The notes under the pieces: generated by a model | Seen by the model: the letters and a program-made list of their open reading frames with translations, nothing else | The model's database searches: none | What the model was told of the DNA's origin: nothing | In this document: one piece after another, positions 4,184 through 5,461 of the stretch | Position numbering within the stretch: the stretch's first letter is position 1 | Layout of the letters: every line of letters begins with the position of its first letter | Program-made: the position numbers and the translations under genes | UHGV virus genome: UHGV-0286550 | Origin: a virus | Length of the DNA stretch: 21,407 nt | Direction: 5' to 3' (one strand)

Positions 4184-5077
4184 ATGAGTTTAATTACGCA
4201 ATTAAATGACGTAATGGCCCGTCGCGGCTATACGCAGACCCACGTCGCCCGTGCAATTGGTCGTAGCAGCGCCGTTATCAACCAGTATTTGCAGGGTAAA
4301 TATCAGGGCGATATGGCTGATATTGAAGAACGCATTTCTGCCTTTGTGACCCGTGAGCGGGAAAAGGAAAACAGCCGCCGTATTAAAGCAAAGTTTGTGA
4401 CCACCGGTATGGCTGCCAAAGGACTGGAGGTGCTGGCCTACGCTCACCTGGAATGTGAAATCTGTGTGCTGTATGGCGCAGCTGGCCTTGGCAAAACAAT
4501 GATTCTGCGTGAATACGCCGCCAGAAACCGGGATGCGGTCCTGATTGAGGCTGACCCAGGCTATACAGCCAGGACACTGCTTGAGGAGTTGTGCCGCCAG
4601 CTGGGGGTAAAGGTTCGCGGCAACATTCACGAACTGATTGATGCCTGTGTGCGCGAACTGCGTGATTCCGGTCGTCTGCTGATGGTGGACGAAGCTGAAC
4701 TGCTCCCCTATCGCGCACTGGAGGTTCTGCGCCGTCTGCATGATAAAGCGGGTATCGGGGTTGTCCTGGCGGGTATGCCTCGTCTTCTGATTAATCTCAA
4801 GGGGCGTCGTGGTGAATTTGCGCAGTTATACAGCCGCGTGGCGCTGGCGCTTAACCTGGGCGACACGCTGGCGCAGGAAGATTTTAACCAGATAGCCACC
4901 GGGCTGATGCCGGAAGCAGCAGAACCGGAAATCAGCGAGGCGCTTTACGCGCGCTCGCTGGGTAATGCCCGCCGCCTGTTCAAACTGGCGCGCGGTGTGT
5001 ACCGGATTTGCGATATCAGCGATGCGCCGGTCAGTGTGCAGGCCATAGATAAATTCGCAGAAATGTTAATTCACTGA
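4184..5077 (+). CDS. B: MuB-type AAA+ ATPase, transposition target DNA activator (297 aa)
   Basis: Walker A GAAGLGKT and Walker B-like LLMVDEAE, immediately downstream of the transposase as in Mu. Confidence 0.85.
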   Translation: MSLITQLNDVMARRGYTQTHVARAIGRSSAVINQYLQGKYQGDMADIEERISAFVTREREKENSRRIKAKFVTTGMAAKGLEVLAYAHLECEICVLYGAAGLGKTMILREYAARNRDAVLIEADPGYTARTLLEELCRQLGVKVRGNIHELIDACVRELRDSGRLLMVDEAELLPYRALEVLRRLHDKAGIGVVLAGMPRLLINLKGRRGEFAQLYSRVALALNLGDTLAQEDFNQIATGLMPEAAEPEISEALYARSLGNARRLFKLARGVYRICDISDAPVSVQAIDKFAEMLIH

Positions 5078-5090
5078 GTAAAGGTCAGGT

Positions 5091-5423
5091 ATGGAACAGA
5101 TTGCCGTAAAAAAAGAAATTAAAGCACTACGGAATATCGGTCGTAATGGTTGTATTTATTTTAATGGAACCCCCGGTGAAATTATTCCGTTTGTTGATTG
5201 CTTCGTGCCGGGTGAACTGCGTATTGATTTATATTCCCGTGAACGGGAAATCAATGGAACCGGAAATACCAGCGACGACTGGGATGTTGATGAATGCTGT
5301 GCGCGATTAATGATTATTCCTTTTGAGCAGACTTTGCAGGGGTTTCGTCGGGCTTACCGCCTTGCACGCATGTGTGCCCACCTGCCCCGGTATCAGCCCC
5401 GACTGGCGTTTACGCTCAGATAA
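5091..5423 (+). CDS. Hypothetical early protein (110 aa), Cys-rich
   Basis: ORF with AAGG 7 nt upstream of the ATG. Bracketed by a 19-bp perfect direct repeat (5059-5077 and 5432-5450). No family recognised. Confidence 0.5.
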   Translation: MEQIAVKKEIKALRNIGRNGCIYFNGTPGEIIPFVDCFVPGELRIDLYSREREINGTGNTSDDWDVDECCARLMIIPFEQTLQGFRRAYRLARMCAHLPRYQPRLAFTLR

Positions 5424-5461
5424 TACAGCAGAGAAATGTTAATTCACTGATGGAGAACAAA

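Follow-up and report, generated by a model that had tools for sequence, protein, structure and literature searches.

The DNA analysed here (the window) is a stretch of 21,407 nucleotides (nt) of the virus genome UHGV-0286550, which comprises the left part of a Mu-like Escherichia coli prophage with the gene order repressor, ner-like, A, B, ORF110 and kil. Its subject is a short direct repeat that brackets ORF110, an optional gene encoding a protein of 110 amino acids (aa), which is located between the gene of the MuB-like transposition ATPase (B) and that of a homologue of the Mu septation inhibitor Kil (Table 1). The 19-base-pair (bp) sequence AGAAATGTTAATTCACTGA is present in exactly two copies on the plus strand of the window, at positions 5059–5077 and 5432–5450, with a start-to-start distance of 373 bp. 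No third copy was found in the window, even when three mismatches were allowed, and the repeat test yielded no matches in 100 dinucleotide-preserving shuffles, in agreement with the initial annotation, which had reported a perfect direct repeat at these positions.

The first copy consists of the last base of an Ala codon, the codons E-M-L-I-H and the TGA stop codon of B, and thus encodes the terminal residues of the ATPase, as had been noticed from the sequence at the outset. The second copy is located between the stop codon of ORF110 (5421–5423) and the GGAG motif preceding kil (5452–5455), and the sole sizeable open reading frame (ORF) between the two copies is ORF110 itself. Three features of a recombination scar are found at this locus, namely the same sequence at both borders, the retention of one copy in relatives that lack ORF110 and the occurrence of the second copy out of its context.

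Table 1. Features of the locus and of its surroundings (positions refer to the window)
Feature	Position	Strand	Basis or remark
Repressor gene	1057–1704	minus	
ner-like gene			between the repressor and Mu-type transposase genes
Mu-type transposase gene	2123–4165		directly precedes B
B, MuB-like transposition ATPase, 297 aa	4184–5077	+	PF13401 AAA_22, 9e-23; phrog_296 'DNA transposition protein', 5e-104
Repeat copy 1, native 3' end of B (codons E-M-L-I-H and stop)	5059–5077	+	exact match
Spacer with Shine–Dalgarno-like AAAGG for ORF110	5078–5090	+	read from the sequence
ORF110, optional 110-aa gene	5091–5423 (stop 5421–5423)	+	member of the 'first gene after B' family
3' flank travelling with ORF110, putative donor-derived side of the junction	5424–5431	+	TACAGCAG aligns with TGCAGCGG located 3' of the Salmonella-type ORF110 stop codon
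AGAAAT microhomology, putative crossover point	5432–5437	+	
Repeat copy 2, probable non-coding fossil of the B 3' end attached to kil	5432–5450	+	exact match
kil ribosome-binding region (GGAG 5452–5455)	5451–5461	+	same as the B–kil junction of relatives without ORF110 (alignment, junction survey)
kil, homologue of Mu Kil (septation inhibitor), 74/75 aa	5462/5465–5689	+	phrog_2679 'Kil protein for bacterial septation inhibition', 2.6e-34
71-aa ORF	5702–5917		3' of kil
DUF3164 gene	5947–6591		3' of the 71-aa ORF

Relatives with and without ORF110

Relatives of the locus were collected by a megablast search of positions 4600–5950 against 5,426 complete E. coli genomes, 58 of which were found to contain the B–kil region. 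ORF110 DNA was present in 10 of these 58 genomes (10/5426 overall) and absent from the remaining 48, in which B with one copy of the repeat leads directly to the gene at 5462. Two copies at a fixed spacing in all relatives, the pattern that the initial annotation would have expected of a conserved regulatory repeat, were therefore not observed. At least 21 of the 40 matches listed span 976–978 bp as opposed to 1351 bp, which is 373–375 bp less and corresponds to the repeat period. In the junction alignment, relatives without ORF110 (empty relatives) read ...GAAATGTTAATTCACTGA followed by TGGAGAACAAGACGATGG and kil, that is, B, one copy of the repeat and kil.

Altogether, 23 empty loci and 15 loci containing ORF110 (filled loci) were read, pooled from E. 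coli genomes, viral contigs and metagenome contigs. All 23 empty loci contain a single copy of the B tail fused to TGGAGAAC and then to kil, while all 15 filled loci contain ORF110 and the second copy, at a spacing of 372–374 bp, and the members of one near-isogenic pair are distinguished by one clean insertion or deletion (indel) of 373 bp. ORF110 was the only cargo found between two copies of the B tail, both in 17 loci from viral contigs and among the matches to the tail in 120 metagenome stretches. The filled junction occurs in three variants (GCAGAGAAAT, GCGCAGAAAT and GCGGCAGAGAAAT). The repeat is 20–22 bp long (CGCAGAAATGTTAATTCACTGA) in most of the other filled relatives, because the base or bases immediately upstream match as well, and 19 bp long in the L026 type. 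In one viral contig (L015, IMGVR_UViG_2529292908_000014), the run of seven A residues near the 5' end of ORF110 (5110–5116 in the window) is reduced to six, which gives a spacing of 372 bp and a frameshifted ORF that represents either a pseudogene or a homopolymer sequencing error.

Origin of the second copy of the repeat

A gene corresponding to ORF110 is also found between B and kil in the Salmonella-type loci L022–L025 and L029, with protein identities of 78 % and 74 %. The junction to kil in these loci, TAATGCAGCGGAGAAATCATCATG, contains no copy of the B tail, and since the Salmonella-type relatives carry ORF110 without it, the second copy appears to be needed by neither ORF110 nor kil. 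Three types of junction (Salmonella-type filled, E. coli-type empty and the three E. coli-type filled variants) were aligned with AGAAAT as the anchor. From the left through AGAAAT, the E. coli filled junction equals the flank of the Salmonella-type ORF110, and from (CGC)AGAAAT rightwards it equals the B tail with the kil leader. AGAAAT is the only stretch that matches both the Salmonella-type ORF110–kil spacer (GGAGAAAT) and the B tail (GCAGAAAT). The two presumed parents share CG(G/C)AGAAAT (6 bp perfect, 8/9 overall), which constitutes the kil Shine–Dalgarno region in the donor and the codons Ala-Glu-Met of B in the recipient. As judged by this alignment, the E. coli junction appears as a chimera that crossed over in the AGAAAT microhomology. 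Because the parentage of the junction switches at AGAAAT, the 19-bp repeat can be read as 6 bp of microhomology and 13 bp of B tail brought along with kil.

The second copy is also in the same frame as ORF110, and reading past its TAA stop codon yields YSREMLIH, which ends in the C-terminal residues of B, followed by a stop codon (5421–5450). GAA-AT is in the same codon phase in both parents; such agreement is expected by coincidence in one of three cases, and no function is claimed for it.

The second copy is probably a fossil of the 3' end of B that dates from the recombination event by which ORF110 came to lie between B and kil. An ORF110-bearing phage with the junction ...TAATGCAGCGGAGAAAT followed by CATCATG and kil would have recombined with a phage in which B and kil were adjacent (...TTCGCAGAAAT followed by GTTAATTCACTGATGGAG...) and in which the stop codon of B abutted the kil ribosome-binding site. 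The crossover or template switch would have fallen within the CG(G/C)AGAAAT microhomology, while the left join would have used the B tail, approximately 18 bp of which are conserved in both phage types. As a consequence, kil would have retained 31 nt of its native upstream sequence, and the cassette would have become flanked by direct repeats of 19–22 bp. These repeats and the conserved B tail would now act as short-homology crossover points, and the loss of the cassette by repeat-mediated deletion would be possible. The proposal that the cassette was gained by short-homology recombination immediately behind B, made in the initial annotation, is thus supported by the empty relatives, the Salmonella-type junction and the AGAAAT crossover. 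It had described the cassette as gained or poised for loss; gain is favoured by these comparisons, while deletion in place is possible in the least diverged pairs, and no deletion event was observed directly.

The direction of the change can be deduced from the structure of the junction. A fragment in the B frame that is fused to TGATGGAG...kil can arise only where the stop codon of B abuts the kil leader, which indicates that the right-hand parent of the filled type was an empty-type phage; since it was of the empty type, the duplication would mark acquisition. We infer, therefore, a gain of ORF110 by a parent in which B and kil were adjacent. In L008 and L021, the resident B ends with ...TTAATTAAGTGA (the AAGTGA form), while the copy near kil still ends with ...TTAATTCACTGA (the CACTGA form), and this mismatch suggests that the second copy is a kil-linked relic that was not regenerated from the local B. 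Distant members of the ORF110 family (L033 and L035) directly follow B with no duplication of the tail, which points to the unduplicated state as the norm.

A different B–kil spacer of 33 nt is present in the Salmonella-type empty locus L028. This spacer (GTCCGGGTAATTATTTAATTCGGAGAA, at approximately 2455–2505 of L028) contains a second TTAATTC just 5' of the kil Shine–Dalgarno sequence and 28 nt downstream of that in the B tail; it may represent an earlier scar of this type that has decayed, or a product of chance.

Several points weigh against the fossil interpretation. The polarity was deduced from logic and parsimony and not from a dated tree. In principle, a deletion of approximately 25 bp and substitutions creating GGAG could have turned the E. 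coli type of junction into the Salmonella type, although this reverse route requires more steps and is less parsimonious. The three junction variants fit a single event followed by mutation or conversion as well as several events, and do not tell these apart. No recombination enzyme was identified, a Red/RecT-type recombinase not having been looked for in the window. Finally, the 26 nt from AGAAAT through GGAGAA, which include the second copy and the kil Shine–Dalgarno sequence, are unchanged in 14 filled loci in which polymorphism affects 33 % of the third codon positions of ORF110 and kil (crude independence P of about 3e-5; 5e-4 for the 19 bp alone).

The distribution of the cassette among B alleles bears on the question of whether the repeat serves mainly for gain or for loss. 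ORF110 and the second copy are found behind at least six distinct B alleles, the 3' 450 bp of which differ by up to 21 %, and four of these alleles are also found in phages without ORF110, with 3' ends of B that are 99.8–100 % identical. Of six comparisons between loci with and without ORF110, five show significantly greater divergence on the kil side than on the B side (p 0.045 to 5e-9), as exemplified by a comparison with 0 differences in 450 bp of B versus 14–17 in 225 bp of kil, and the B tail can for this reason be regarded as a recurrent recombination joint. To judge from these comparisons, the cassette has been reassorted mostly by exchange between phages at the B tail rather than by deletion in place, which is possible for the least diverged pairs (L031/L032 and L075/L001).

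A low but appreciable probability is given to the explanation that ORF110 and both repeats are older in the E. coli lineage and that the empty loci arose repeatedly by RecA-independent slippage or single-strand annealing, so that the repeat would be mainly a loss device. Deletion between the repeats would yield exactly the observed empty site, and this explanation would accommodate the precise 373-bp indel of the near-isogenic pair and the nearly identical empty counterparts of four filled lineages, yet the greater divergence of the kil side in five of the six comparisons argues for exchange with another phage and not for deletion in place. Moreover, the fragment of B tail on the kil leader must derive from an ancestor in which B and kil were adjacent, and relatives outside the E. 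coli lineage carry an ORF110-type gene without the repeat.

The invariance of the 26 nt mentioned above requires a separate explanation. The bases located just 5' of them (TAAT[A/G]C[A/G]GC[A/G][G/C]) and just 3' of them do vary. Approximately 18 nt at the 3' end of B (GAAATGTTAATTCACTGA) likewise show no nucleotide difference among B alleles with only 79–84 % identity, and the same tail is found in the Salmonella-type B, in which the preceding 40 nt are unrelated. The tail is invariant at its synonymous sites, whereas all 13 preceding codons are polymorphic at the third position. A neutral scar should have decayed, and selection or homogenization must therefore be added to the scar model: either the tail aids translation of the next gene, or crossovers within the tail keep homogenizing it.

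That the duplication itself was selected as a cis element is unlikely. The AU-rich B tail would then be part of the translation initiation region (an enhancer, a standby site or a coupling context) of the gene that follows B. The 26 invariant nt in 14 filled loci with at least seven ORF110 alleles and the conservation of synonymous sites in the tails of very divergent B alleles are consistent with such a role, as is the lack of predicted secondary structure in the tail region, which is usual for initiation regions. However, the same gene pair is found without the second copy in Salmonella-type and more distant relatives, and one copy is present in 48 of the 58 E. coli relatives. A structured RNA or riboswitch was rejected, as no Rfam match was obtained and folding was no better than that of shuffled sequence (z-scores +0.25 to +1.4). 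Since a cis element does not explain the origin of the duplication, it could at most complement the scar model. A broader idea, which we also regard as improbable, is that the B tail is under selection as a reusable 'docking' sequence, with the double function of driving translation of the next gene and of serving as a preferred crossover site for the insertion or removal of early genes; the duplicate would be kept by selection, and ORF110 could act as a dedicated partner of the MuB ATPase, as its modulator or early in anti-defence.

Although direct repeats do bracket a discrete segment of lower-GC DNA, it is highly improbable that ORF110 is the cargo of a mobile element with the 19-bp repeat as a target-site duplication or recombination site, and a transposon, insertion sequence or integron cassette was rejected on every count: the 373 bp contain no transposase or integrase gene, the borders show neither terminal inverted repeats nor attC-like palindromes, the cassette was found nowhere except after B, with ORF110 alone between two tail copies, and 19–22 bp is far longer than typical target duplications.

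ORF110, its family and neighbouring genes

The pairwise ratios of nonsynonymous to synonymous substitutions (dN/dS) of ORF110 are 0.06–0.3 (about 0.1), with dS up to 1.3, and by its sequence ORF110 is evidently a real gene. Its GC content is 46.5 % (41 % at third codon positions), while that of B and kil is 55–57.5 % (57 % at third codon positions). The spacer preceding ORF110 is homologous to that of the Salmonella-type relatives (TGAGTAAGG...GTATGGAACAG). No sigma-70-like promoter or intrinsic-terminator-like site was recognized between 5040 and 5470 by a consensus scan, in which the counts for the region equalled those for shuffled sequence. As ORF110 has the AAAGG motif but no promoter or terminator signal of its own, it is probably expressed from the early operon.

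Close homologues of ORF110 form eight clusters among 5.8 billion proteins and belong to E. coli or Salmonella wherever an organism is named. A full hidden Markov model search of 1.8 billion representative proteins delivered a family of 21 proteins at E ≤0.001, with lengths of 86–111 aa save for a protein of 573 aa in which no more than a short repeated segment matches. The conserved motifs of the family are E9, D46-x-Y48-S, W-D65-V-D and F85-R-R-A-Y-R-L-A92-R93. ORF110 contains five Cys residues, of which C37 and C95 alone are invariant in close relatives, and the wider family has no conserved Cys; the single Cys-rich ORF of the initial annotation thus stands as a single sizeable ORF, but its Cys content was discarded as a functional clue. 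The named members, all annotated as hypothetical, come from Escherichia, Salmonella, Enterobacter, Providencia, Aeromonas and Vibrio. In all eight divergent members that were read (P0003, P0004, P0005, P0009, P0013, P0015, P0020 and P0024), the family gene is located immediately 3' of the gene for a MuB-like ATPase.

ORF110 matched nothing in Pfam, PHROGs, PADLOC or the PDB sequences, and the comparison of 23 family members with Pfam and PHROGs yielded nothing beyond one marginal Toprim_4 match. No homologue was found in isolated phages (tblastn against 50,697 phage records), the DNA similarity of the B–ORF110–kil stretch to isolated phages is marginal, and a scan of species-representative genomes with the family alignment gave no match. 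An AlphaFold model based on six sequences (mean predicted local distance difference test score, pLDDT, 51) was too poor to use, while one based on 23 sequences was usable (pLDDT 71, core 80–93). ORF110 does not appear to be random cargo, given that its family is habitually located directly after B. It may be speculated, from the fixed place beside B and the early-operon setting, that it plays a role in early lytic development or in functions associated with B.

The identity of the downstream gene as a member of the Kil family is indicated by a phrog_2679 match that spans the whole protein and by the position of the gene after B. No match was found in the local Pfam copy; the precomputed annotation of a related gene gives PF26843 Kil_protein, and the RefSeq label for 5462–5689 is hypothetical protein. 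An N-terminally extended Kil, initiated at the ATG that overlaps the stop codon of B (TGATG), is less likely, as the Salmonella-type kil has no in-frame ATG at this place; it is also disfavoured by the GGAG located 6–9 nt 5' of the annotated kil start.

The 71-aa ORF located 3' of kil has a GC content of 41.7 %, which is also low, and the genes further downstream include GemA, Mor, lysis and head genes. The homologue of the 71-aa ORF in E. coli RM9088 (L161, NZ_CP042298.1), just 3' of kil, contains an inserted IS1A element. In L002–L004 and L031, kil and the 71-aa ORF are separated by one or two additional small ORFs (252, 246 or 192 nt) that are absent from the window (5690–5946); no direct repeats flank them, and only Shine–Dalgarno-like similarity was found. 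The most divergent close relative, L025, has a Mu Gam gene (PF07352, 4418–4942) in the place of the DUF3164 gene.

Comparison with known systems

The gene order of the window, with a repressor, a ner-like gene, A, B, a Kil homologue and, later, GemA and Mor, resembles that of the phage Mu early operon (c, ner, A, B, kil and semi-essential early genes), from which it differs by the extra gene between B and kil. Morons and other accessory genes located between genes that are adjacent in related phages are known from lambdoid phages (Hendrix and colleagues). ORF110 is similar to morons in that it lies between B and kil, which are adjacent in most relatives, has a lower GC content and is patchily distributed (10/58). 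Two of three moron hallmarks are thus found, the position between otherwise adjacent genes and the deviant composition, while the third, a promoter and terminator of its own, was not detected by the consensus scan, ORF110 being located inside the early operon. Moreover, unlike morons, the ORF110 family has a fixed address after B, which makes it more akin to a facultative gene of the core region than to imported cargo.

Deletion between short direct repeats occurs in E. coli independently of RecA, by slipped mispairing or single-strand annealing. The perfect repeats of 19–22 bp at a distance of 373 bp resemble the substrates of such deletion, and the predicted product is the empty site of the relatives; however, most of the natural presence/absence pairs resemble exchange between phages.

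Two routes to phage mosaicism have been described, illegitimate recombination and homologous recombination at short conserved flanks, and RecET can recombine homologies of 5–13 bp (Martinsohn et al. 2008, PMC2327257). Most of the mosaic joints described have no recognizable signal at their borders (PMC2327257). Like the mosaic junctions of temperate phages, the ORF110 join is located at a gene boundary, with 6–9 bp of microhomology on one side and a conserved tail of approximately 18 bp on the other, and the B-tail boundary has been reused with at least six different left-hand alleles. Unlike at most mosaic joints, both parental junctions are extant, the crossover can be read to the base, and a direct duplication of 19–22 bp was left behind. 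In contrast to the lambdoid cases, the window phage is a transposable phage of the Mu type.

The case is a clean but ordinary one of phage gene swapping at short shared sequences, in which only the resolution is unusual, and the current understanding is not overturned. Since the recombinant and the two parental junctions are all preserved in public genomes, the joint in this phage mosaic can be read to the base. It provides a worked example for the question of illegitimate versus short-homology recombination and extends it to transposable phages of the Mu type. The analysis also flags a small, unannotated family of gammaproteobacterial proteins, whose position after the MuB-like ATPase makes it a candidate for experimental work.

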